Source: a virus (taxonomy: Duplodnaviria; Heunggongvirae; Uroviricota; Caudoviricetes). Taken from it: DNA of 20,256 nucleotides. Numbering within the stretch: position 1 is the first letter of the stretch; each line of letters opens with the position of its first letter. Positions 1,565-20,256 of the stretch are shown here, in pieces. The notes beneath the pieces were generated by a model. It was not told where the DNA came from and did not search any database. It worked only from the letters and a program-made list of their open reading frames with translations. Position numbers and translations under genes: made by a program. The stretch is from IMG/VR virus record IMGVR_UViG_2671180606_000002; one strand, written 5' to 3'.

Positions 1565-3022
1565 TTAGGAGCGCCAAAAAAAACCTGAAAACAATATAAT
1601 AACAGGATAAATTTCAAGGCGACCAAGAATCATAGCTATGCACATTAAGCATTTTGCAATGTCATTAAGCACTCCGAATGACGATGCAGTAGCCCCAAAA
1701 CCTAATCCCATATTATTAATACATGCAGCCACTGTTGCAAATGATGTAAGAAAATCATATCCCATACCATTTAACACCAGTATAAAAAACACCGTGAAGA
1801 GAGTATAAAGAAAAAAGAAACTCCATACAGACCTCATTACACGATCTGTAACTATCTTCCCTCCTACATTTACACTCAACAACGCTCTGGGATGAGAAAG
1901 CTGATTTATCTCGTGTTTGCTTTGTTTGAAAAGTATAAGAAATCGAAGTGACTTAATTCCACCACAAGTTGAACCTATACATCCCCCAAAGAAACTTGAC
2001 AACAGCAAAAACACTATCGTGTGCGTGGGCCAACTTGCATAATCCTGCGTAGCTAAACCATTATCAGTGAGCATGGAGCTGGCAAGAAAAAACGAATGAA
2101 TAAAACTTCCATGCAAGTCATACATACCTATATGCCAGACCTGGAAAGAGGTAACAATGATCACCCCTAAGGCTATTAACAGAAAGAAACGAAGTTCAAT
2201 ATCTCTGATTAAAGGTTTTATCGTTTTCCTGCTAATAACAATATACCAAAGAGTGAAGTTGAAAGCCGATAGCAGGGAAAAAGAACCAGCCACCAGCTCA
2301 ACCAAATAGTTATTAAAATATCCGATACTCTCGCTATGAGTTGAGAAACCACCAAGCGAAACTGTGGAAATCCCGTGACAAATAGCATCAAACAAAGGCA
2401 TTCCTGCAAGTCTATAACAGACAATACAAGCAATACCTAATAAAGAATAAGTTATCCACAGTGTCCGTGACGTATCGGCCAGGCGGGGAGTGAGTTTGTC
2501 ATCCTTAAATGGCCCCGGCATTTCTGACTGATAAAGCTTTGCACCACCAATACCCAATAATGGCAATACAGCAACCGCCAGAACAATAACTCCTAAACCA
2601 CCTATAAAATTTAACTGTGACCGATAGTACAAATATGCCCGAGGTAATGAACTAACATCATCAATTACAGTTGCTCCTGTTGTTGTTATTCCAGAAACCC
2701 CTTCAAACAGAGCATCAATGAACGTTAAATTAAGTTCTGAGTCAATCCATAAAGGGAATGCACTAATAACAGAAAACAAAATCCAAAACATTACAATTAT
2801 AATAAACCCATCACGGGTACGTAATTGAATGCCAGATTTCTTAGTTGTATACCACGCTCCGCCACCAATGCAAAAAAATATAACGAAAGTTATAAAGAAA
2901 ACAAACAGGCTTTTTTCTTTATAAAACAATGCTACAACCATTGGTGGCAACATTGAAAGACTATAGAGCCAAACCAGGAACCCACACATATGAGTAACAA
3001 CTCTTACATGAGATGTATTCAT
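1565..3022 (-). CDS. trkG: Trk-system potassium uptake protein TrkG (TrkH family)
   Basis: Multi-pass membrane protein with TrkH-type GxG pore motifs; translation from ATG at 3022 (MNTSHVRVVTHMCGFLVW...) gives 485 aa as for Rac TrkG; the six-frame ORF extends 6 codons further to a TTG at 3040; low GC relative to flanks. Confidence 0.9.
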   Translation of the reverse strand: MNTSHVRVVTHMCGFLVWLYSLSMLPPMVVALFYKEKSLFVFFITFVIFFCIGGGAWYTTKKSGIQLRTRDGFIIIVMFWILFSVISAFPLWIDSELNLTFIDALFEGVSGITTTGATVIDDVSSLPRAYLYYRSQLNFIGGLGVIVLAVAVLPLLGIGGAKLYQSEMPGPFKDDKLTPRLADTSRTLWITYSLLGIACIVCYRLAGMPLFDAICHGISTVSLGGFSTHSESIGYFNNYLVELVAGSFSLLSAFNFTLWYIVISRKTIKPLIRDIELRFFLLIALGVIIVTSFQVWHIGMYDLHGSFIHSFFLASSMLTDNGLATQDYASWPTHTIVFLLLSSFFGGCIGSTCGGIKSLRFLILFKQSKHEINQLSHPRALLSVNVGGKIVTDRVMRSVWSFFFLYTLFTVFFILVLNGMGYDFLTSFATVAACINNMGLGFGATASSFGVLNDIAKCLMCIAMILGRLEIYPVIILFSGFFWRS

Positions 3023-3159
3023 ATCTAAATATTCTTTCAATTATAACCACCTTGCTGCAATATTATGATTATACTGTATAAAATTTAACTCCTCTTAGAT
3101 CTTACTTCACTGTTCCTTATGAAACAATCATCAAAATGAATCATATTGTAGTTAAGATT

Positions 3160-3624
3160 TTACTTTAAACACTGCTCGGTTATGTATTGCTGAGCACCTT
3201 CAAGTTGGGCCTGCATCATTACCAGTCGTTCCCGGAGGGTGAAATAATCCCGTTCAGCGGTGTCTGCCAGTCGGGGGGAGGCTGCATTATCCACGCCGGA
3301 GGCGGTGGTGGCTTCACGCACTGACTGACAGACTGCTTTGATGTGCAACCGACGACGACCAGCGGCAACATCATCACGCAGAGCATCATTTTCAGCTTTC
3401 GCATCAGCTAACTCCTTCGTGTATTTTGCATCGAGCGCAGCAACATCACGCTGACGCATCTGCATCTCAGTAATTGCCGCGTTCGCCAGCTTCAGTTCTC
3501 TGGCATTTTTGTCGCGCTGTTCTTTGTAGGCGATGGCGTTATCACGGTAATGATTAACACCCCATGACAGGCAGACGACGATGCAGATAACCAGAGCGGA
3601 GATAATCGCGGTTACTCTGCTCAT
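3160..3624 (-). CDS. Spanin inner-membrane subunit Rz (i-spanin)
   Basis: 154-aa ORF nearly identical in pattern to lambda Rz ([36 protein letters not shown]); start overlaps endolysin stop (ATGA at 3621..3624). Confidence 0.9.
3219..3404 (-). CDS. Spanin outer-membrane lipoprotein Rz1 (o-spanin), embedded in Rz in the +1 frame
   Basis: 61-aa ORF with lipobox LVVVGC and proline-rich body ([29 protein letters not shown]) as in lambda Rz1; ATG at 3404; nested wholly inside Rz. Confidence 0.85.
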
Positions 3625-4097
3625 ACCTCAATCTCTCTGACCGTTCCGCCAGCTTCTTTGAATTTTGCAATCAGACTGTCAGCCTTATGCTCGAACTGAC
3701 CATAACCAGCGCCCGGCAGTGAAGCCCATATATTGCTGCAACGGTCGATAGCCTGACGGATATCACCGCGATCAATCATCGGCAAAGCGCCACGCTCTTT
3801 AATCTGCTGCAGCGCTACAGCATCCTGACTTTCTGGAGAAAAATCTTTCAGGCCAAGTTGCTTGCGGTAGGCATCCCACCAGCGTGAAAGAAGCTGGTAA
3901 CGTCCAGCGGCTGTTGATTTGAGTTTCGGATTTAGCGTGACAAGTTTGCGGGGGTGATCGGAGTAATCAGTGAACAGTTCGCCACCGACAATAACATCAT
4001 AACCGTGATTTCTGGTTTTCTGCCGTCCGTTATCTGTTCCTTCTGACCATGCCACCATATCAAGGAAAGCTTTACGCTGGGAATTAAGTGTCTGCAT
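3621..4097 (-). CDS. Endolysin, lambda R-type lytic transglycosylase
   Basis: 158-aa ORF with strong resemblance to lambda R ([47 protein letters not shown]...); ATG at 4097, 4 nt after holin stop. Confidence 0.9.
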
Positions 4098-7509: not shown

Positions 7510-7776
7510 TGGGAAAATATTTATCGTTAAAAAATACATCATAAATAATTAAGCTGAAATTTCAGAACACAACTAATACACACAATAAGGTTCAGTAACA
7601 ATAATCTATGTGGACTACATCGAGATTTTTTGATTAAACTTTAATAACTTATTCCTAACACACAGAATGCATAAACTAAAAGTAAAACAAATAGTTATAC
7701 GAAAAACAACCATATTTATTATATCTTCTCCTCTAATCAACATATCAATTATGTGTTTCATAACAGCTTGACATAA

Positions 7777-7815
7777 CCCTCAAAAACACGCATTTATAAT
7801 GCATGTTTTTGAGGG
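7777..7815. promoter_or_regulatory. NsrR-box-like palindrome over the -10 and ribosome-binding region of the yeaR-like gene
   Basis: 17-bp inverted arms CCCTCAAAAACACGCAT / ATGCATGTTTTTGAGGG (one mismatch) around TTATA; core AACACGCATTT-A-TAATGCATGTT (7785..7807) matches my recalled 11-1-11 NsrR consensus with about 2 mismatches; TATAAT at 7795..7800; TTGACA at 7768..7773 is 21 bp upstream. Confidence 0.45.
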
Positions 7816-7822
7816 GGTGGTT

Positions 7823-8161
7823 ATGACACACAAGAGAATTCCTAAAGATTGGGTAATCAAACGCTCAACTCCGTTCTTCACAAAAGAGAACGTACCTTCA
7901 GCGTTATTAACACATCATAATACAGCAGCAGGTGTTTTTGGGCAGTTGTGCGTAATGGAAGGCACTGTAACATATTATGGTTTTACTGATGAGAATGCTA
8001 CTGAACCGGAGATAAAAGTAGTCATTAATGCTGGCGCTTTTGCAACAAGCCCACCACAATACTGGCACCGTGTTGAACTAAGCGATGATGCTCAGTTTAA
8101 TATTAACTTTTGGGTCGCTCCAGACTTCTCGGGCGAAAAAGTCTATAGCACCAAAAAATAG
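7823..8161 (+). CDS. YeaR-like protein (DUF1971, TehB N-terminal-like domain)
   Basis: 112-aa product from ATG at 7823 (GAGGGGGTGG Shine-Dalgarno); conserved blocks RSTPFF..P......H.T..G....L.V..G.V.Y.G..DE...EP.......AG.FA..PP..WH.......D..FNI.F.VAP align by eye to E. coli YeaR. Confidence 0.8.
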   Translation: MTHKRIPKDWVIKRSTPFFTKENVPSALLTHHNTAAGVFGQLCVMEGTVTYYGFTDENATEPEIKVVINAGAFATSPPQYWHRVELSDDAQFNINFWVAPDFSGEKVYSTKK

Positions 8162-8190
8162 ATGATCATATTAAAAATGCTTTAACAGTC

Positions 8191-8228
8191 AGACCCGGCA
8201 GGGCTATCCCCGACGGGTCTCATTTTTG
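8191..8228 (+). terminator. Rho-independent terminator after the yeaR-like gene
   Basis: AGACCCG...CGGGTCT hairpin (8191..8220) followed by CATTTTTG, 30 nt after the stop codon. Confidence 0.55.
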
Positions 8229-8923
8229 TAAATATATTGGTTCTACATTGACAGGAGACTTCAACCATAAGAAGTAATCTGAATACTTGAGCAATAAATT
8301 TACTTAAGATTAATGAGCGCACCTTGCCGGACAAAGATAAACCAAGGTAACACCTTTTTTCTAGCCAGTATGTAATCAATCAGAAAGCCGCTCCATAAGA
8401 ACAACAGCAAGACAATAAATTGCCATTACAGCCGCAATAGCCAGCGCACATTTGAGAACCAGCACGACAACCCCCTGTATTAGACGCACACCAGTCCTGA
8501 TAAATATGAGGCTGTCTCGTCAGTGATTCAATACAACTATTGGGTATAGTTTCTGTGATTTTATTCTGTAGAAATGGAACACAACAACCAGTCACCACCA
8601 GCACTTCTTTAAATACGCCAAGTCCGACGCAAGCTAACCTTCTAGTCCGCTTTGAGCGAAAAGCGGACAGGAACATTCTGGTTAATAGATATCAATGCTA
8701 ACAAAAAAGCTCCCGATGGAGATTTTGAAACCGCTTCCACATAATGAAATAAAAGGATTTATTTCTGGTCATGCCCACACATTGACCACGTCGAAGTAAG
8801 TAGCTCCGCTTCGCGGAGTTACTTAAGATAATTTCTATGTAGTTCCATGCTATGATTTAATTTTCAAGTTACAAAATCTAAATCTACAAATGTCCATTTG
8901 GGTGTAAAATTACACAATCCTAT

Positions 8924-11297
<2,374 letters not shown>

Positions 11298-11369
11298 AGG
11301 ATTAATCCAAAATAAAGACCTTGTTGACTAAACCCTCATGTACAAAATGCACACTTACTCAAAAGGATC

Positions 11370-11390
11370 TGGAGGCAATCTCGACCTCCA
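11370..11390. promoter_or_regulatory. Perfect inverted repeat TGGAGG-N9-CCTCCA in the divergent intergenic region between the deaminase gene and the TetR-like gene
   Basis: Exact 6-bp arms with 9-bp spacer; positioned like an operator in a divergent regulator/operon arrangement; function not established. Confidence 0.3.
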
Positions 11391-11550
11391 TGATTTAGTT
11401 CCTAGGGATAAGCAGAAATCTAGCACTGGATTAAAATTTAAAAATAATAATCAATAGGTTATAATGGTTTTTATTCGCATCCATGGGATCTGCTGCTGCC
11501 CGCATGATGTTGGATGCGACGGCGCTGGCACGACCTCACCCGGTGAAACG

Positions 11551-11996
11551 ATGAAACGCGAAAGGGTTGTTCTTCGGGAAGGTGCAGTTGGACTTTCAAT
11601 CGATGACGTTGCAAAAGAGGCTGGCGTCAGTAAGGCAACGGTAATGTACGATCATAAGTCAAAGCAAGATTTGCTCAGCGATCTCATCAGTCGCCTTATG
11701 CCAGTAGAGGAGGAACGTGTTCAGCAAGCGATAGCGGAAAGTAATAATACCCCCACATCCCGCACTCTATGGGCGAATTATTTCAGCCAGTAATGCTCTC
11801 AGTCATACTGAGAGAGCAGTAGTGCTGGCGGTCAGCGAATCGTTAACTAACGATACGAATATCAGGGACACCATGCGTTCCTGCACAAACAAAGATTTGG
11901 ATGAGATAAAAAGAGGACCAAAACCAGACGTTGCCGTCCTGGTATATTTGGCGTTATCTGGTATCTACTGCCAAGAATTTTTTGATTTTTACAAAT
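11551..11996 (+). pseudogene. TetR-family transcriptional regulator, disrupted by frameshift (N-terminal HTH 11551..11793; C-terminal remainder continues in +1 frame to about 11996)
   Basis: N-terminal frame has a TetR-type HTH (LSIDDVAKEAGVSKATVMYDHKSKQDLL) and stops after 80 aa; the next frame continues ALSHTERAVVLAVSESLTNDT...LVYLALSGIYCQEFFDFYK without its own start; TATAAT at 11460..11465 upstream. Confidence 0.55.
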
Positions 11997-12271
11997 GATC
12001 TCCTGGCGAGCGAGATAAAATTATCGAAGGCATTCGCTGTTTGTATGAATCATACCCTTACAAGTCTGAATAAATAATGTCTCCGGGAATGACATTTCAT
12101 GTGCGACTAATTCGCGATATTCCTATACGTAAAGGTCCGCTTTTGGCACAAAGTGGACAACCACGCTAGCTCTACCCTGTGCCACAAAATGTCAATTTGC
12201 ATCTGAACTAATGCACTTTAATCTCGTCACTTCAATAAATACCGAACATCCCCCTGATAAAACGACAATAT

Positions 12272-12649
12272 TCACTGCATAACTTCACTCTTCAGGCACT
12301 CGCGACAGATTATGTTCAGACGCCTGTCGTAACGGCGTATTTCTCCGTCTGGTAATGACCAGATAAGGTCAGGATCAACCACAACCGGTTTCTTCACCTT
12401 TGTCCTTGATAGTTTTTTGCGGGCGTTTTGCCAGTCTTTACGCGCCTGCTCAGACGGGAATAATCCGTAGCCTGAATTGTAAACATCACCACTGGCGACT
12501 AGTTCTCTGGCGAGAGTGCTTATGTAATACCTTGATGCACCGGTTTTAGCCTCCAGAGCCCGTAACGTCTCGCGACCGCTCAGAGGTACAAGTTCAACAA
12601 CCTGTCCTTTAATTTTTTCTCGCTCTTCTGGTGTAAATACTTTTGCCAT
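12272..12649 (-). CDS. Hypothetical phage protein (125 aa)
   Basis: ATG at 12649 with GGAGG 7 nt upstream (MAKVFTPEEREK...); six-frame ORF extends to a TTG at 12664; basic C-terminal part; no family recognised. Confidence 0.6.
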   Translation of the reverse strand: MAKVFTPEEREKIKGQVVELVPLSGRETLRALEAKTGASRYYISTLARELVASGDVYNSGYGLFPSEQARKDWQNARKKLSRTKVKKPVVVDPDLIWSLPDGEIRRYDRRLNIICRECLKSEVMQ

Positions 12650-12664
12650 AGGTGCCTCCGGCAA

Positions 12665-13426
12665 TCACTTTTCCGATGCAACATGGCGGGAAGAATCAGT
12701 AATCTGTCGTACAATATCCCTGTGCTTGTTCAACTCACGCAGCGCGGCGCAGACACGCTCCCACTTCTGGACATGATTTTTCGCCCGACGCAGTTCGCGG
12801 TTTGCCATATGCAGTGATGGTAAAACCAGGTCATCCGCTCGCGTTTCAGTAAACGATGGCAGCGACTGCACAATGTCCGCCACAGTTTCTGTTTTAATAT
12901 CTTCCTGTGTTGCAGCCTCCTGTACTGGTAACGCAACACCTGCGGTCTGAGGAAAGGCCTTACCATCAGTTTCCGCTACCGATGCTGCTTTCGGCTCTGC
13001 TGGTAAATTATCGCCCGGTATGCAGTAACGAAATTTACCGCCCTGATTTACGCGAATCAGACGACCTTTGCTGATTGCCATTGCCAGCGTTGAAGCCACT
13101 TTGCGTGATGTGGTACCAAACAATGTAGCCAGCTCATCAGCCGTTTGTGGTCCTCGTTGTTCAATCGTCGCGGTTAAATCGCACTCTGAGATTTTCGCTA
13201 CTGTTGCTGTGGTGATTTCTTCCGGCAGTTCTGCCTGCGCTGGCTGTTCCTGCTGAACATTGTTATCAGCCACACGCCAGGTGTACGCGCTTTTATCAAC
13301 AAAACCAGCCTTTTTCAGTTCCCATAGTTCGTTCAGCACTTCTTCACGACTGATATCAAGTCGCGCAGCAAGTTCTATGGATGTGGCTTTTCCCATTGCT
13401 TTCAGTGCGTCAAAAACAGTCTCCAT
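12665..13426 (-). CDS. Phage protein with N-terminal winged-helix-like domain (possibly the full-length counterpart of Rac pseudogene YdaW)
   Basis: Start chosen at ATG 13426 ([43 protein letters not shown]...) with GGGAGA upstream; the longer ORF to 13477 would overlap the DnaC-like gene by 29 nt; acidic/Ala-Thr-rich linker. Confidence 0.65.
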
Positions 13427-13448
13427 TAAATTTTTCTCCCGGTAAAAA

Positions 13449-14195
13449 TTACTTCGCAATTCCTGGCTGGACGACATTCGGACGCCAGCTCTCCCAGTTA
13501 AAATTCACCCATCGCCCGCCGTTCATGGTCATGCGATCCATAATCCGCTCGCCGAGCAATGTTTTCATGGCCTCATAGTTCAGGTTTGTCAGCATCCCCA
13601 CGCTGCGCATCGACGCTGTCCGGCGATCAACAATCTGGTGCAGTACCACCTGCTCGTTTTTCGTCTCGCGCTGAATGCCAATTTCATCAAGAACCAGCAG
13701 ATCCACTTCGCACAGTTCCCGCAAAAATTTTTCGCCTGACTGCCCATCGTCATAGCTGGCGTGCAGGGCACTCATAACATCAGCCACGGTAACCACAATC
13801 ACTGTCTGACCGTCTTTCAGCAGGCGATTCCCGATAGCTGCCGCTAAGTGGTTCTTCCCGGTACCAGGTTTTCCGCTGAACGCAAAATTTGTACACCCGG
13901 TCATCAGTTCATCAGCGATGGATTTCGCCTGACTCAACGCGTATCGCTGCCCTTCGTTCTGCACCTGGTAATTCGAAAACGAGCATTTGCGGTGCAATGG
14001 CTGGATGCCAGAGCGATTCAGAATTTTTTCCACCCGCAACTGACGATTCTGACGGTTGATCTCCTCACAACGTTTCTGGCCTTCGGAAAGTTGCCACTCG
14101 CGCCACTCCGCTACCGTCTTGAATGGCGCGGTTACATGTGACGGGGCCAGTCTGCGGATACGTTCAAGAACATCGCCTGTCGCAATATTTTTCAT
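13449..14195 (-). CDS. ydaV: DnaC/IstB-like AAA+ helicase-loader (replication protein, YdaV-like)
   Basis: 248-aa ORF with Walker [16 protein letters not shown] and Walker [10 protein letters not shown]; ATG at 14195; follows the initiator-like gene as in lambdoid O-P modules. Confidence 0.9.
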
Positions 14196-14201
14196 GGTCA
14201 G

Positions 14202-15059
14202 TTACCCCCTGAAGCCTGGCGGGATCGCACTATCCGGTAACGAGACGGTGTTAACCTGTCGGAGTAACGTCTCAGGTCGAACACCTTTCGGCGCGAACAA
14301 GCCCTGGTATTCATTGGCGATGCTGTGTCGAATCACCTGCTCAGGTGAAAAACCCTGCTGGCGGAATTTTTCCAGCTCCCGTATCGCCCCGTTAGCGCCC
14401 TGCTCCGTTCGAATCGGTTTTCGCAATGCCTGGCGAAATTCAACCCACTCACGCCAAAGCGAGACAGAAATCCAGTTCGGCAAAGTAATATCCAGAGGGT
14501 CAAACTTTTTGACACCTCGATTCCCCCGGGGGGGATTTAGGGGGGGATCTGTTTTTAGATCTTTATCTGTATCTTTATTAGTTGCCTTTGTGTTGACATC
14601 ATGTTCAAACACCACTTCAACATCTGTTTGAACACCTGTTAAATTTCTCTCTTGTTTTGTTTGAACATCTGCTTCCTTTCTGCTTCTTCTGGCCTGAACA
14701 GATGCTTTTCCTGCGGCTGATTTTTTGGTTAATTTTTCCCTGACTGATGCCAGATCTTCCTCAATCCGAAGATGCACCCATTCCTCGCCGTTATCGCAAA
14801 AAAACTCCTGCAAGGATGGTTCAACATCAGCCCATCGCTCGTTAGTCAGACGGGCAATTTTTGCCAGCCTGTTTTTAGGTATTGGCTTTCCTGTTTGCCA
14901 GTAATTGAACATCAGCAACAAATACGCACCATGCTCCTCTGCTGACAAATGCATGGTGTCAGCCAGGTAATCAGCTATGTACAGTTGCATGTATGGTAAT
15001 GCGGCCATAATTGCCCCGTATGATGCTGCCCGGTGGCTTAGAATAAGCACAAACAGCAT
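14202..15059 (-). CDS. ydaU: Phage replication initiation/organiser protein (YdaU-like, DUF1376)
   Basis: 285-aa ORF, same length as recalled Rac YdaU; N-terminal YLADTMHLSAEEHGAYLLLMFNYW block; central charged KDTDKDLK repeat region encoded by iteron-like DNA. Confidence 0.8.
   Translation of the reverse strand: MLFVLILSHRAASYGAIMAALPYMQLYIADYLADTMHLSAEEHGAYLLLMFNYWQTGKPIPKNRLAKIARLTNERWADVEPSLQEFFCDNGEEWVHLRIEEDLASVREKLTKKSAAGKASVQARRSRKEADVQTKQERNLTGVQTDVEVVFEHDVNTKATNKDTDKDLKTDPPLNPPRGNRGVKKFDPLDITLPNWISVSLWREWVEFRQALRKPIRTEQGANGAIRELEKFRQQGFSPEQVIRHSIANEYQGLFAPKGVRPETLLRQVNTVSLPDSAIPPGFRG
14595..14709. repeat. Cluster of four iteron-like elements (core TGTT[C/T][A/G]AACA / CATCTG) inside the ydaU-like gene; candidate replication origin
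   Basis: ACATCATGTTCAAACACC, AACATCTGTTTGAACACC, TGTTTGAACATCTGC and CTGAACAGATGC within about 115 bp, next to AT-rich sequence; analogous to the lambda ori iterons inside gene O. Confidence 0.4.
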
Positions 15060-15071
15060 GGAAACTTTTGC

Positions 15072-15377
15072 TTAATGAACAATGACAGAATCGTCGGAAG
15101 AACCGCCGCCGCTGAAATGCGCTTTCCGGTAAACGGCTTGGACTGCATCATCATGCGCATCAATTGCCGTACTTAACGCTTCCTGCGCCGCCAGTAATGC
15201 ACGGCGTTCCAGGGTATCGAAGATGCAGAGTCGGTGACGCAGCTCGCGCGGAAGGATTGCCAGAATTGCTGGGATCAGCTTCTGAATTTTTTCTCTTTGC
15301 GTTTTCGTTTCACCTTTCAACCAACGGTGATAGATATTCTGCTGATTGTTCCAGTCCTTGCCTGGAACCAGGGGCAA
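15072..15377 (-). pseudogene. YdaT-like C-terminal fragment lacking an ATG start (only TTG at 15377)
   Basis: 101-aa frame with no internal Met, predicted helical C-terminus; sits immediately upstream of ydaU-like where Rac has ydaT (recalled as 140 aa); the expected upstream Cro-like and repressor genes are absent. Confidence 0.4.
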
Positions 15378-15480
15378 TTCGCCGCCCCCCTGGCGCAGAT
15401 ATTCTTCAGTAATTGCATTGGCTACCCATGCCTGCCCTTTTTCGGCTGCTAGGGCACCCGGCGTTAAGGGGAGAGATAAG

Positions 15481-15615
15481 ATGGTGCATTACGAAGTAGT
15501 TCAGTATTTGATGGATTGTTGCGGTATCACTTACAACCAGGCTGTGCAGGCTTTACGCAGCAACGACTGGGATCTCTGGCAGGCAGAAGTCGCTATACGT
15601 AGCAACAAGATGTGA
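15481..15615 (+). CDS. ydaG: Small Rac-type early-left protein (YdaG-like, 44 aa)
   Basis: ATG at 15481 with AAGGGGAGAG Shine-Dalgarno; product MVHYEVVQYLMDCCGITYNQAVQALRSNDWDLWQAEVAIRSNKM; size and position match Rac ydaG. Confidence 0.6.
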   Translation: MVHYEVVQYLMDCCGITYNQAVQALRSNDWDLWQAEVAIRSNKM

Positions 15616-15625
15616 GATTCGCAAA

Positions 15626-15781
15626 ATGCAAAAAATCGACCTCGGCAACAACGAATCCCTGGTGTGCGGCGTGTTCCCCAACCAGGATGGAACGTTCACT
15701 GCCATGACGTATACCAAAAGCAAAACATTTAAAACCGAAACTGGTGCGCGCCGATGGTTGGAGAAGCACACAGTAAGCTAA
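15626..15781 (+). CDS. ydaF: Small Rac-type early-left protein (YdaF/YdfA-like, 51 aa)
   Basis: ATG at 15626, 51-aa product MQKIDLGNNESLVCGVFPNQDGTFTAMTYTKSKTF...; 3-prime end overlaps sieB stop convergently by 4 nt; size and position match Rac ydaF. Confidence 0.6.
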   Translation: MQKIDLGNNESLVCGVFPNQDGTFTAMTYTKSKTFKTETGARRWLEKHTVS

Positions 15782-16266
15782 CGATTAAAACGTCTACTCC
15801 TGCTGTTCCAGAATAACTTCATAAAATGGGAGTATTTTTCGGTGACGAGATAATAAGAACAGTTTGCGCTATCACTCTGATGTTGAATGATGCCCTTCCG
15901 TTCTAATTTTTTCATAACCGGGTTACGGCAAGGAGAAGTGATAATAAGATTTCCTGTTTTAAGGAAATCTTTAAATACAGCGATTTCTTTCTCAGATAAA
16001 CGAAGCAATACTCGTTGCTCTGGTAGTAATGAATAATGCTTTTGAATATGTGCTCGCAATCTTGAGAAGGAAATGGCGACCACGAAAGAAAAGGCAAAAA
16101 CGATAATCTGAAAGAGCCAAGGTATTTCAGTATAAGCATTGAATGCGACAGTAAACTCTTTCGGTATCAGCCAGAGAGTGAGACCAAAAATGATAATCGT
16201 ATACATAAGTCTTTCGAGTGGCTCGTTAGCAAAAAGTTTCAACAATGGAGTAAATACATCCAACAT
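15778..16266 (-). CDS. sieB: Superinfection exclusion protein B
   Basis: 162-aa membrane protein from ATG at 16266 (MLDVFTPLLKLFANEPLERLMYTIIIFGLTLWLIPKEF...); opposite orientation to neighbours as in Rac and lambda; the six-frame ORF has a 41-codon upstream extension lacking support. Confidence 0.85.
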   Translation of the reverse strand: MLDVFTPLLKLFANEPLERLMYTIIIFGLTLWLIPKEFTVAFNAYTEIPWLFQIIVFAFSFVVAISFSRLRAHIQKHYSLLPEQRVLLRLSEKEIAVFKDFLKTGNLIITSPCRNPVMKKLERKGIIQHQSDSANCSYYLVTEKYSHFMKLFWNSRSRRFNR

Positions 16267-16484
16267 ATCAATAACTCTCAACTGTAAGGGTATTGAAATG
16301 TTAACACAAGCTCTCGCTGTAGGGGTATAGCCGAGACCACCGAAGCCCGGAGGTGGTGAAATAAAACCGGGCACAACACGAAGGCGCATTTCCGATATCC
16401 ATAAAGAGTCGGTCTTGTCTGTTAAATTTAAATGGTGGGAGTGCGCCTCCGGTTGTAAATAACGACATTGCTGTGTGTAGTCCT

Positions 16485-16532
16485 GGCGGCATCAGTTTTT
16501 TTCTTGAAGTTCGGCTGATGTCCGCCCTTTTT
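16485..16532 (+). terminator. Intrinsic-terminator-like hairpin upstream of kilR (early-left operon, tL-like)
   Basis: GGCGGCATCAG ... CTGATGTCCGCC imperfect inverted repeat followed by CTTTTTAAAG on the plus strand. Confidence 0.4.
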
Positions 16533-16707
16533 AAAGTGAATTTTGTGATGCGGTGAATGCGGCTAAGCGCACGTGGCACAGTTAAAAGTCATGTTAGTCC
16601 TTATTGGTTTGGGTGGGAAAGCCGACTGTAATTGTTAACTGGTTGCAGTCACCTGGAGGCACCAGACACCGCATCAACAAAGTTCATTTGTAAAAATGGA
16701 GATAATT

Positions 16708-16929
16708 ATGATTGCACATCACTTCGGAACTGATGAAATACCACGTCAGTGTGTGACTCCTGGCGATTATGTTCTTCATGAAGGCCGGACATATATTGCC
16801 TCGGCAAACAATATTAAAAAGCGAAAACTATATATTCGTAACCTGACCACAAAAACATTCATTACTGACCGCATGATTAAAGTCTTCCTCGGTCGTGATG
16901 GTTTACCTGTAAAGGCGGAGTCATGGTGA
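16708..16929 (+). CDS. kilR: Cell-division inhibitor KilR (FtsZ inhibitor)
   Basis: 73-aa product [32 protein letters not shown]... from ATG at 16708 with GGAG upstream; matches Rac KilR in length and sequence as recalled. Confidence 0.85.
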
Positions 16930-17099
16930 TGACTAAGAAAATAAAATGTGCTTACCACCTTTGCAAAAAAGACGTTGAAGAAAGCAAAGCTATTGAAAGA
17001 ATGCTTCACTTCATGCACGGGATTTTATCAAAAGACGAACCGAGAAAATATTGCAGTGAAGCTTGTGCCGAAAAAGACCAGATGGCACATGAACTTTAA
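16929..17099 (+). CDS. ydaE: Rac prophage small Cys-rich protein YdaE
   Basis: 56-aa product [56 protein letters not shown]; ATG overlaps kilR stop (TGATG); not in the six-frame track because under 60 aa. Confidence 0.7.
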   Translation: MTKKIKCAYHLCKKDVEESKAIERMLHFMHGILSKDEPRKYCSEACAEKDQMAHEL

Positions 17100-17173
17100 T
17101 TAATTGACTATTCGAAACTGAATTTATGCCAGAAATGGCAGGTATTCGCTCAACCTTAATTAAGGAGAAAAAC

Positions 17174-17449
17174 ATGATTACCAATTATGAAGCCACTGTT
17201 GTAACTACCGATGACATTGTTCACGAGGTGAATCTGGAAGGAAAGCGCATTGGCTACGTAATTAAAACAGAAAATAAAGAAACCCCATTCACTGTGGTTG
17301 ATATCGATGGTCCATCAGGCAACGTAAAAACACTTGATGAAGGTGTCAAAAAAATGTGCCTGGTGCATATCGGAAAGAATCTGCCCGCAGAAAAAAAAGC
17401 CGAATTTCTGGCAACTCTAATTGCAATGAAATTAAAAGGTGAAATCTGA
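17174..17449 (+). CDS. racC: Rac prophage protein RacC
   Basis: 91-aa product from ATG at 17174 with AAGGAG Shine-Dalgarno (MITNYEATVVTTDDIVHEVNLEGKR...). Confidence 0.8.
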   Translation: MITNYEATVVTTDDIVHEVNLEGKRIGYVIKTENKETPFTVVDIDGPSGNVKTLDEGVKKMCLVHIGKNLPAEKKAEFLATLIAMKLKGEI

Positions 17450-17550
17450 AAGAAATAGCCTGCGTATGGCGCAGGCTATGAACAGTGTGTATCCGGCAAG
17501 ATCATTCACTGAACAAAACGAATTTTAATCTGAGTTGAGGTTAAAAAACA

Positions 17551-18000
17551 ATGAGCACAAAACCACTCTTCCTGTTACGGAAAGCGAAAAAATCATCCGG
17601 TGAACCTGACGTCGTCCTGTGGGCAAGCAACGATTTTGAATCGACCTGTGCCACTCTGGACTACCTGATCGTTAAGTCAGGTAAAAAACTGAGCAGCTAT
17701 TTTAAAGCTGTTGCCACGAATTTTCCTGTCGTTAATGACCTGCCCGCTGAAGGTGAGATCGATTTTACCTGGAGTGAACGCTATCAACTCAGCAAAGACT
17801 CCATGACATGGGAACTAAAACCGGGAGCAGCACCAGACAACGCTCACTATCAAGGCAATACCAACGTCAACGGCGAAGACATGACTGAGATTGAGGAGAA
17901 TATGCTACTCCCAATTTCTGGCCAGGAACTGCCCATTCGTTGGCTTGCTCAACACGGCAGCGAAAAACCGGTACCCACGTCTATGCTGTCGCAAGACTGA
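17551..18000 (+). pseudogene. recE: recE (exonuclease VIII) N-terminal remnant, about 141 native codons then out-of-frame tail
   Basis: Translation begins [46 protein letters not shown], the RecE N-terminus as recalled, and ends after [10 protein letters not shown]; RecE should be over 800 aa. Confidence 0.85.
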
Positions 18001-18272
18001 AAGACGGAGGTACTCAGTTTGAAGTTATGACGCGCAAACAGATTGAGCTGGTGCGCAGCCTGAGTAAAGCTGGTAATAACGGGCCGTGGGTAACTCACTG
18101 GGAAGAAATGGCAAAGAAAACGGCTATTCGTCGCCTGTTCAAATATCTGCCCGTATCAATTGAGATCCAGCGTGCAGTATCAATGGATGAAAAGGAACCA
18201 CTGACAATCGATCCTGCAGATTCCTCTGTATTAACCGGGGAATACAGTGTAATCGATAATTCAGAGGAATAA
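17974..18272 (+). pseudogene. recT: recT C-terminal remnant (about 98 codons) fused out of frame to the recE fragment
   Basis: +1 frame reads [66 protein letters not shown]...VIDNSEE, the RecT C-terminus as recalled; no RecT N-terminal 170 residues anywhere in window. Confidence 0.85.
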
Positions 18273-18328
18273 TTCAGCCTGGCGGTGTAATGCACCGCCA
18301 ACTTGAAATATTTTTTATGAGAAAAATT

Positions 18329-18523
18329 ATGAGATATGACAATGTTAAACCATGTCCATTTTGTGGTTGTCCATCAGTAACGGTGAAAGCCATTTCAGGA
18401 TATTACCGAGCGAAGTGTAACGGATGCGAATCCCGAACCGGTTATGGTGGAAGTGAAAAAGAAGCACTCGAAAGATGGAATAAACGAACCACTGGAAATA
18501 ATAATGGAGGTGTTCATGTATAA
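18329..18523 (+). CDS. ralR: Restriction alleviation protein RalR (Lar-like)
   Basis: 64-aa Cys-rich product MRYDNVKPCPFCGCPSVTVKAISGYYRAKCNGCESRTGYGG...; start chosen at ATG 18329 to match RalR length. Confidence 0.8.
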   Translation: MRYDNVKPCPFCGCPSVTVKAISGYYRAKCNGCESRTGYGGSEKEALERWNKRTTGNNNGGVHV

Positions 18524-18725
18524 AATTACCGCCACTATTGAAAAGGAAGGTGGCACTCCTACTAACTGGACAAGATATTCAAAATCTAAACTAACGAAAT
18601 CAGAATGCGAAAAAATGCTCTCAGGTAAAAAAGAAGCAGGCGTTTCCAGAGAGCAGAAAGTAAAACTGATAAATTTTAATTGCGAGAAACTTCAGTCCTC
18701 GAGAATTGCATTGTATTCAAATTAA
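18516..18725 (+). CDS. ydaC: Rac prophage protein YdaC
   Basis: 69-aa product from ATG at 18516 with GGAGGTG Shine-Dalgarno (MYKITATIEKEGGTPTNWTRYSK...); overlaps ralR stop. Confidence 0.75.
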   Translation: MYKITATIEKEGGTPTNWTRYSKSKLTKSECEKMLSGKKEAGVSREQKVKLINFNCEKLQSSRIALYSN

Positions 18726-18803
18726 AACTTCATAGCTGATTATTAATAATCAACATCGGGCGTCAATTTCAGTCTAACATTGGCGCCTGCCAGAGGTGAT
18801 GCG

Positions 18804-19019
18804 ATGGCACAAGTAATCTTTAATGAAGAGTGGATGGTTGAATACGGCCTGATGCTTCGCACTGGTCTGGGGGCCAGACAAATTGAAGCATACCGCCAGA
18901 ACTGTTGGGTGGAGGGCTTCCACTTCAAACGAGTATCTCCTTTAGGTAAGCCAGACAGCAAACGAGGGATTATCTGGTACAACTATCCAAAGATAAATCA
19001 GTTTATCAAAGACTCATGA
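18804..19019 (+). CDS. xisR: Excisionase (Xis)
   Basis: 71-aa product from ATG at 18804 with GAGGTGA Shine-Dalgarno ([32 protein letters not shown]...); immediately upstream of int. Confidence 0.8.
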
Positions 19020-19020
19020 T

Positions 19021-20256
19021 ATGTCTAAATTACCAACAGGTGTCGAGATTAGAGGTAGATACATTCGCATCTGGTTCATGTTTCGAGGAAAACGATGTCG
19101 GGAAACATTAAAAGGCTGGGAGATTACAAACAGTAATATTAAAAAGGCCGGAAATTTAAGAGCGCTGATAGTTCATGAAATAAACTCCGGTGAATTTGAG
19201 TATTTAAGACGTTTTCCCCAGTCCAGCACTGGGGCAAAAATGGTGACAACGAGAGTCATAAAAACGTTCGGAGAGCTTTGTGATATCTGGACAAAAATTA
19301 AAGAGACAGAGTTAACAACAAACACAATGAAGAAAACGAAATCACAATTAAAAACACTCAGAATAATAATTTGTGAAAGTACCCCGATATCACATATTCG
19401 TTATAGCGATATCTTAAACTACCGGAATGAACTGCTGCATGGAGAAACGCTTTACCTGGATAATCCAAGATCCAACAAAAAAGGAAGAACCGTGCGCACA
19501 GTTGATAACTATATCGCCCTGCTCTGTTCGCTGTTGCGTTTTGCGTATCAGTCGGGATTTATATCAACCAAACCATTTGAAGGAGTAAAAAAATTACAGC
19601 GAAACAGAATAAAGCCTGATCCGTTATCTAAAACAGAATTCAATGCATTAATGGAAAGTGAAAAAGGACAGAGCCAGAACTTGTGGAAATTTGCCGTTTA
19701 CTCAGGACTTCGTCACGGGGAACTGGCAGCTCTGGCGTGGGAGGATGTGGATCTCGAAAAGGGAATAGTGAATGTCAGAAGAAACCTGACGATACTTGAT
19801 ATGTTCGGTCCCCCAAAAACAAATGCCGGGATCCGAACAGTAACACTACTGCAGCCTGCTCTTGAAGCACTGAAGGAGCAATACAAACTGACCGGGCATC
19901 ATCGCAAAAGCGAAATCACCTTTTATCATCGGGAGTACGGCAGAACCGAAAAGCAAAAACTGCATTTTGTTTTCATGCCCAGGGTGTGTAACGGAAAACA
20001 AAAACCTTATTACTCGGTAAGCAGTTTGGGGGCAAGGTGGAATGCAGCAGTAAAACGTGCTGGTATTCGCCGCCGTAATCCGTACCATACGCGGCATACT
20101 TTTGCCTGCTGGCTGTTGACGGCAGGAGCGAACCCGGCATTTATAGCCAGCCAAATGGGGCATGAAACTGCGCAGATGGTGTATGAAATTTACGGTATGT
20201 GGATTGATGACATGAACGACGAACAGATAGCCATGTTGAATGCGCGGTTATCGTAG
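19021..20256 (+). CDS. intR: Tyrosine site-specific integrase
   Basis: 411-aa ORF; C-terminal catalytic region with conserved R (LRHGELAALAW), HxxR (HTRHTFACWLL) and catalytic Tyr region (VYEIYGMW); stop codon is the last triplet of the window. Confidence 0.95.
   Translation: MSKLPTGVEIRGRYIRIWFMFRGKRCRETLKGWEITNSNIKKAGNLRALIVHEINSGEFEYLRRFPQSSTGAKMVTTRVIKTFGELCDIWTKIKETELTTNTMKKTKSQLKTLRIIICESTPISHIRYSDILNYRNELLHGETLYLDNPRSNKKGRTVRTVDNYIALLCSLLRFAYQSGFISTKPFEGVKKLQRNRIKPDPLSKTEFNALMESEKGQSQNLWKFAVYSGLRHGELAALAWEDVDLEKGIVNVRRNLTILDMFGPPKTNAGIRTVTLLQPALEALKEQYKLTGHHRKSEITFYHREYGRTEKQKLHFVFMPRVCNGKQKPYYSVSSLGARWNAAVKRAGIRRRNPYHTRHTFACWLLTAGANPAFIASQMGHETAQMVYEIYGMWIDDMNDEQIAMLNARLS

Follow-up and report, generated by a model that had tools for sequence, protein, structure and literature searches.

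A 2,681-bp deletion between recE and recT in a defective Rac prophage of Escherichia coli, probably guided by an imperfect short repeat

In the 20,256-nucleotide stretch of DNA analysed here (the window), the start of recE runs directly into the end of recT, which raises the question of how the two genes came to be joined and what the join has left of RecET recombination. The window comes from a defective, cryptic prophage of E. coli of the Rac type. It has the Rac gene order and the ttcA-side integration with intR and xisR; the operon order kilR-ydaE-racC-recE-recT-ralR-rcbA-xisR-intR is common to the window and to the two references used throughout, the Rac prophage of E. coli K-12 MG1655 (L001) and its closest intact relative, in the clinical isolate MS15047 (L003). 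A longer contig with the window sequence (L004) continues after intR into ttcA-dbpA.

Extent of the deletion and the genes that remain

BLAST alignment of the window to K-12 Rac and to MS15047 gave two collinear blocks, with window positions 15455-17980 corresponding to 17686-20212 of L003 and positions 17968-20256 to 22879-25168. Base-by-base extension showed that the exact match to recE (which starts at L003 19782) runs to window position 17973, equivalent to L003 20204 and the third base of codon 141, while the exact match to recT begins at 17972, equivalent to L003 22884. The deletion junction is thus the dinucleotide TA at 17972..17973, which could come from either parent gene; the blocks abut with this 2-nt overlap, and neither filler DNA nor an insertion sequence is present at the join. 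The missing interval, present in both K-12 and MS15047, measures 2,681 bp and comprises recE codons 142-866 together with recT codons 1-170. A preliminary description of this DNA had proposed an internal recE-recT deletion of roughly 2.5-3 kb, with a switch at 17968-17973 and about 141 recE and 98 recT codons left. The alignment to K-12 recE and recT that it suggested as a check places the breakpoints to the base (17973 and 17972) and agrees with each of these points, the exact figures being 141 and 99 codons; a full-length recE or recT, which would have contradicted it, is found nowhere within the window.

The recE remnant (recE') occupies 17551..17973 on the plus strand, encodes residues 1-141 of exodeoxyribonuclease VIII and is identical to recE of K-12 and of MS15047. 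Its reading frame continues out of frame into recT sequence at 17974..18000 (plus strand), where it gains the tail PTSMLSQD before a TGA codon at 17998-18000, so that the open reading frame 17551-18000 specifies 149 amino acids, 141 native and 8 foreign. The recT remnant ('recT) is the 3' end of K-12 recT, at 17973..18272 on the plus strand, with codons 171-269 at 17973-18269, a stop codon at 18270-18272 and no start codon in context. Relative to recE' its frame is -1 (= +2); the recE frame consequently reads recT in its +1 frame, the out-of-frame join described before. A single synonymous C/T difference at 18147, in recT, is all that separates the two remnants from K-12.

RecE' retains the N-terminal Exonuc_VIII region (PF06630; residues 2-141 against profile positions 1-166 of 203, E = 3.8e-79) and has no PDDEXK exonuclease domain. 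In K-12 RecE that domain (PF12684) spans residues 615-850 and the structure PDB 3h4r covers residues 605-866, and both regions fall wholly inside the deleted interval. 'RecT keeps only positions 115-187 of the 198-position PF03837 profile, with 1-114 lost, and hence has neither a complete RecT domain nor a start codon of its own; PDB 7ub2 aligns to RecT residues 15-248. The deletion has therefore taken the RecE nuclease domain and the first two thirds of the RecT fold. Because both catalytic parts (the RecE PDDEXK domain and the greater part of the RecT annealase fold) are missing, the prophage can encode no RecET recombination activity, and the Pfam and PDB coverage of the lost domains bears out the earlier statement that no functional RecET remains.

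The surroundings are preserved. Directly 5' of recE' lies racC (17174..17449), and 3' of 'recT lie ralR (18329..18523), rcbA (ydaC; 18516..18725), xisR (18804..19019) and intR (19021..20256), all on the plus strand and all intact, exact nucleotide copies of their K-12 counterparts, as had been expected for ralR, ydaC, xis and int. The antisense RNA antitoxin RalA is present at full length on the minus strand at 18522..18700 (Rfam RF02694; 225 bits, gathering score 170), and both parts of the RalR/RalA type I toxin-antitoxin system are accordingly in place. In total, ten genes match K-12 exactly in nucleotide sequence and follow the K-12 order: a 44-aa gene, ydaF, sieB, kilR, ydaE, racC, ralR, rcbA, xisR and intR. 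One nucleotide difference in the remnants and ten exact neighbours accord with a deletion of recent date, the operon being otherwise conserved.

Junction sequence and the origin of the deletion

The preliminary description had placed the switch on a shared CCGGTA and attributed the deletion to recombination across it. Pro-Val is indeed encoded at this point in both genes, and there is short similarity at the join; the identity of the six bases does not hold, as recE carries CCGGTA and recT CCGGTT, and in the register that was used the exact share is TA only. A crossover within the common CCGGT would yield CCGGTTACCCACGT and an in-frame fusion, whereas the window reads CCGGTACCCACGT, one base shorter. 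The similarity extends over an imperfect repeat of 15 nt with 12 matches, CCGGTAACGCACGTT in recE (L003 20199) and CCGGTTACCCACGTC in recT (L003 22879), which codes for Pro-Val-Thr-His-Val in the own frame of each gene (RecE residues 140-144, RecT residues 169-173). At 17968..17981 on the plus strand the window holds a 14-nt hybrid of these two parent copies, CCGGTACCCACGTC. An in-register crossover would remove 2,680 bp and produce an in-frame RecE(1-141)::RecT(171-269), while the actual join is shifted by one base (register -1) from the in-register alignment; the fusion is out of frame because CCGGTACCCACGTC is one base shorter than the in-register product.

Similarity of at least 12/15 is rare between the two genes, with 27 alignment windows (about 13 sites) among 2.06 million recE x recT position pairs. 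When 20,000 random recE x recT junctions were drawn, 16 (0.08%) fell on similarity as strong and within one base of register. The position of the join on the repeat is non-random, and it is through the 12/15 repeat that the similarity of the parental breakpoints exceeds chance. The exact TA overlap alone is not significant, as an overlap of this kind is expected in about 16% of random joins by our own calculation, with P(k) = (k+1)(1/4)^k(3/4)^2. Since the exact overlap is just 2 nt, guidance by homology rests on the imperfect repeat and requires a one-base bulge.

The window carries a genuine 2,681-bp deletion which abolished RecET, and we consider it quite probable that this arose in one event of illegitimate recombination guided by short homology. 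Candidate routes are a template switch or slipped mispairing while the DNA is replicated, or the annealing of resected ends. In such an event CCGGTAACGCACGTT of recE would pair with CCGGTTACCCACGTC of recT with one base bulged, giving CCGGTACCCACGTC, and the missing base would shift the recT frame to leave a 149-aa RecE' stub and a promoterless recT tail. For a template switch, a strand copying recT leftwards could pair over about 9-10 nt (ACGTG-GT-A), with a single mismatch and a single bulged base. The pathway is most likely slippage, or annealing with a bulge. Against guidance by homology stand the deletion at racR in the same prophage (described below) and the similar allele of strain PSS-07, neither of which has homology above chance, and the sitA junction with its 1-nt overlap; these deletions without extended homology imply that end joining with little or no homology also acts here.

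In recE and recT alike the repeat is in frame, and an in-register event would leave a clean fusion, so the allele could have formed in two steps: an in-frame fusion by in-register crossover (2,680 bp) and a later loss of 1 bp (TAAC to TAC, or GTTA to GTA). That such fusions can persist is illustrated by the natural in-frame 632-aa RecE::RecT of strains TA8571, XD35 and W409. This route nevertheless needs two rare events at one spot, in remnants that, with their ten neighbours, show just one SNP relative to K-12, and no in-frame intermediate was present in 5,426 complete genomes or in metagenome, GTDB-representative or IMG/VR collections. At the join such an intermediate would read CCGGTAACCCACGT or CCGGTTACCCACGT, with the general form CCGGT[AT]ACCCACGT. 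As sequence words, the window junction reads GAAAAACCGGTACCCACGTCT and that of PSS-07 GGCAGCGAAAAGACGGAGG, and the two hypothetical in-frame intermediates would read GAAAAACCGGTAACCCACGTCT and GAAAAACCGGTTACCCACGTCT. A gapped pattern that matches both known junctions (window and PSS-07) as well as any intermediate whose anchors are no more than 41 nt apart, and that was validated on the window, the PSS-07 locus (L002) and L004, had zero matches in JGI metagenome contigs, GTDB species representatives and IMG/VR. An origin in two steps is less parsimonious than a single event, and we regard it as unlikely.

Homology might instead have played no part, the deletion being the outcome of random double-strand-break repair or end joining and its position on the repeat a coincidence. 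The exact overlap at the join is only 2 nt, and the junctions at racR (1,241 bp) and sitA and those of PSS-07, LR-03, BL21 and TA8571 all have overlaps of 1-3 nt and no extended similarity, as this explanation would have it; the chance of about 0.0008 that a random junction falls on similarity of at least 12/15 within one base of register weighs against it, and makes it in our judgement decidedly unlikely. An assembly or sequencing error, in a strain that has an intact recET or whose in-frame junction was miscalled by one base, is highly improbable even though the evidence is at assembly level and the NCBI and Logan assemblies may share one read set, given that two assembly pipelines are identical over 12.7 kb within 137- and 171-kb contigs, that assemblers do not join across a 2-nt overlap, that the junction is no homopolymer, and that alleles of this sort do occur, as the related but distinct junction in the complete genome of PSS-07 shows. 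Three contigs in the NCBI and Logan data encode the exact 149-aa RecE' product, and a Logan contig of SRR11849210 (137 kb) matches window positions 7551-20256 at 100% identity, the recE-recT and racR junctions included; this identical junction in an independent assembly speaks against the artefact that the preliminary description had allowed for.

The allele of PSS-07 and other lesions of the prophage

The distribution of the single deletion event favoured above was surveyed by megablast of window positions 17400-18400 against 5,426 complete E. coli genomes. A match was found in 2,787 of them, and in nearly all of these only query bases 1-581 (racC and the start of recE) align in one piece. 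Both halves of the query are contiguous in one genome only, that of PSS-07 (NZ_AP027673), the sole member of the set with a recE-recT deletion this similar. The PSS-07 deletion spans 2,717 bp from recE codon 139 to recT codon 180 with the overlap AAA; it encloses the window deletion, reaching 6 bp further left and 30 bp further right, and the recE'-'recT pair is annotated by PGAP as pseudogenes. The two alleles share the same frame offset, and rightward of the deletion the prophage DNA is identical up to ttcA, a stretch in which K-12 differs from both by one common SNP only. In contrast, divergence in the chromosomal flank amounts to 0.7% (44 SNPs over 6.4 kb), six positions differ on the left side, and PSS-07 keeps racR and has its own ydaS-ydaV deletion, a distinct loss in the immunity region. 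The C at 18147, found in the window and PSS-07 where K-12 and MS15047 have T, was considered as a mark of common ancestry and set aside as uninformative, as it also occurs in no fewer than 60 complete genomes whose recT is intact. At 2695-3174 of L002, a remnant of a ydaS-like regulator is fused to a remnant of ydaV; the Rac immunity and replication region was hit independently in the window strain and in PSS-07.

The PSS-07 allele may have arisen independently, or from a window-type allele by a secondary deletion of 36 bp. On the rough assumption of uniform endpoints, independent random events would lie so close with a frequency of about 3e-4 per allele pair. Endpoints this near are unlikely by chance and call either for shared ancestry with recombination into another background or for a local hotspot. 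We put forward only tentatively, and as a possibility that we think rather doubtful, that the PVTHV-coding repeat and its surroundings are a recurrent deletion hotspot and that the window and PSS-07 represent convergent RecET-null Rac prophages of separate origin in strains unrelated to each other; this reading derives from the spacing of the window and PSS-07 endpoints, 6 and 30 bp apart where those of other alleles are scattered over about 3 kb. If true, it might reflect selection against RecET in some lineages and not neutral decay, and the near-coincidence with PSS-07 is the only feature of the locus that might reward a look at the scale of populations.

Comparison with MS15047 over about 19.7 kb gave three deletions, one frameshift and five substitutions. 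The second deletion, of 1,241 bp, lies at window position 15455/15456 with the overlap CA and corresponds to 16447-17687 of L003 and to about 2817-4057 of K-12 L001. Lost with it are the complete ydaS and racR genes, the 5' part of ydaT and almost the whole intergenic region downstream of racR. Extended homology at its ends is not above chance, and its junction is absent from all 5,426 complete genomes. In K-12, racR is reported to be dispensable only when ydaS/ydaT are missing too, and in the window racR has gone together with ydaS and the 5' end of ydaT. The joint loss of racR and ydaS also fits the rule that ydaS is never found without racR (PMC5700373). The two best sigma-70-like promoters predicted for the region lie in the counterpart interval of K-12, TTGACA-17-TATAGT directed towards the 44-aa gene, kilR, racC and recE, and TTGACA-18-TAATAT towards ydaS; titration of RacR raises ydaS, kilR, ydaE, racC and others 40-70-fold (PMC11014345). 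Because racR and these predicted promoters lie inside the 1,241-bp deletion, the recE'-'recT operon is probably left with neither its repressor nor its promoter.

The third deletion has its junction at window position 510 (within 1-543), with a 1-nt overlap, T. About 170 codons of sitA are fused there to prophage DNA beside a ParB/Srx gene, giving an open reading frame of 180 aa; relative to AMSCJX02 and MS15047, sitBCD and all late (structural) genes are missing, and no complete genome shares the junction. The frameshift, again relative to MS15047, is one additional C at position 11750 in a TetR/AcrR gene (about 11551-11997), whose open reading frame ends after about 80 native residues. This gene adjoins a cassette of three cargo genes on the minus strand at 8924-11297, which is also in MS15047 and not in K-12. 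The cassette encodes a SIR2-domain protein (ThsA-SIR2-like in PADLOC, 9e-32), a Ham1/ITPase-like NTP pyrophosphatase and an adenosine deaminase that resembles the deaminase part of CARF_ADA (7e-36); from these similarities it may be an anti-phage or nucleotide-depletion module. The cargo (SIR2, ITPase, adenosine deaminase and TetR) is not in K-12 Rac, and the nearest relative of the prophage is that of the clinical isolate MS15047; an origin in an engineered strain was rejected on these grounds.

Comparison with other recE/recT deletions and with lacI

The recE gene is among the best-conserved genes of Rac (PMC5700373), and it is intact in the great majority of genomes. A 2.5-kb query tolerating larger or smaller deletions detected some internal recE/recT deletion in 39 of 2,852 genomes. 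There are at least four natural recE/recT deletion alleles besides that of the window, which is one more of a recurrent class; we found no description of a natural recET deletion of such a kind among the publications consulted. In addition to PSS-07, BL21(DE3) and other B strains lack 1,501 bp from recE codon 90 to recE codon 590 (overlap AA; recT intact), LR-03 lacks 1,365 bp from recE codon 527 to recT codon 117 (overlap TAA), and TA8571, XD35 and W409 lack 1,504 bp from recE codon 410 to recT codon 47 (overlap CA; the in-frame fusion named above). None of the BL21, LR-03, TA8571 and PSS-07 junctions shows extended homology, that of PSS-07 having no more than expected by chance. The B-strain deletion shifts the reading frame of recE (L007, BL21(DE3), 1352-2451), and common B-strain expression hosts are thus also without full-length RecE. 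In TA8571 (L008 1352-3250), XD35 and W409 the RecE(1-410)::RecT(47-269) frame is annotated only as 'recombination protein RecT'.

The recE-recT deletion of the window is ordinary cryptic-prophage decay by short-homology deletion, a new allele produced by a known kind of event, and we infer that the loss of RecET was neutral or mildly advantageous. It adds one precisely mapped case to the small collection of natural deletions in recE/recT, and the prophage as a whole is a compact example of the wider pattern of deletion-biased prophage decay, with its cargo genes spared. That the Rac prophage of this strain is unable to supply RecET is relevant only to sbcA-type activation or to recombineering with endogenous RecET there, and the import beyond annotation is little.

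Set beside recE-recT of K-12 and MS15047, the locus belongs to the same prophage, with the same operon order and ttcA-side attachment, and the parts that are kept are identical but for one synonymous SNP; it differs in lacking 2,681 bp, and hence the nuclease domain and most of the RecT fold. With the BL21, LR-03 and TA8571 alleles it shares the character of an internal deletion in recE/recT with an overlap of 2-3 nt and perfectly conserved neighbouring genes, while their endpoints differ from those of the window and do not lie on an extended repeat. A further parallel is offered by lacI, where a hotspot of spontaneous deletion in E. coli reportedly lies at a 14/17 repeat: in both cases a kilobase-scale deletion has its endpoints on a short imperfect direct repeat, but the recE-recT product departs by one base from the register of its repeat.
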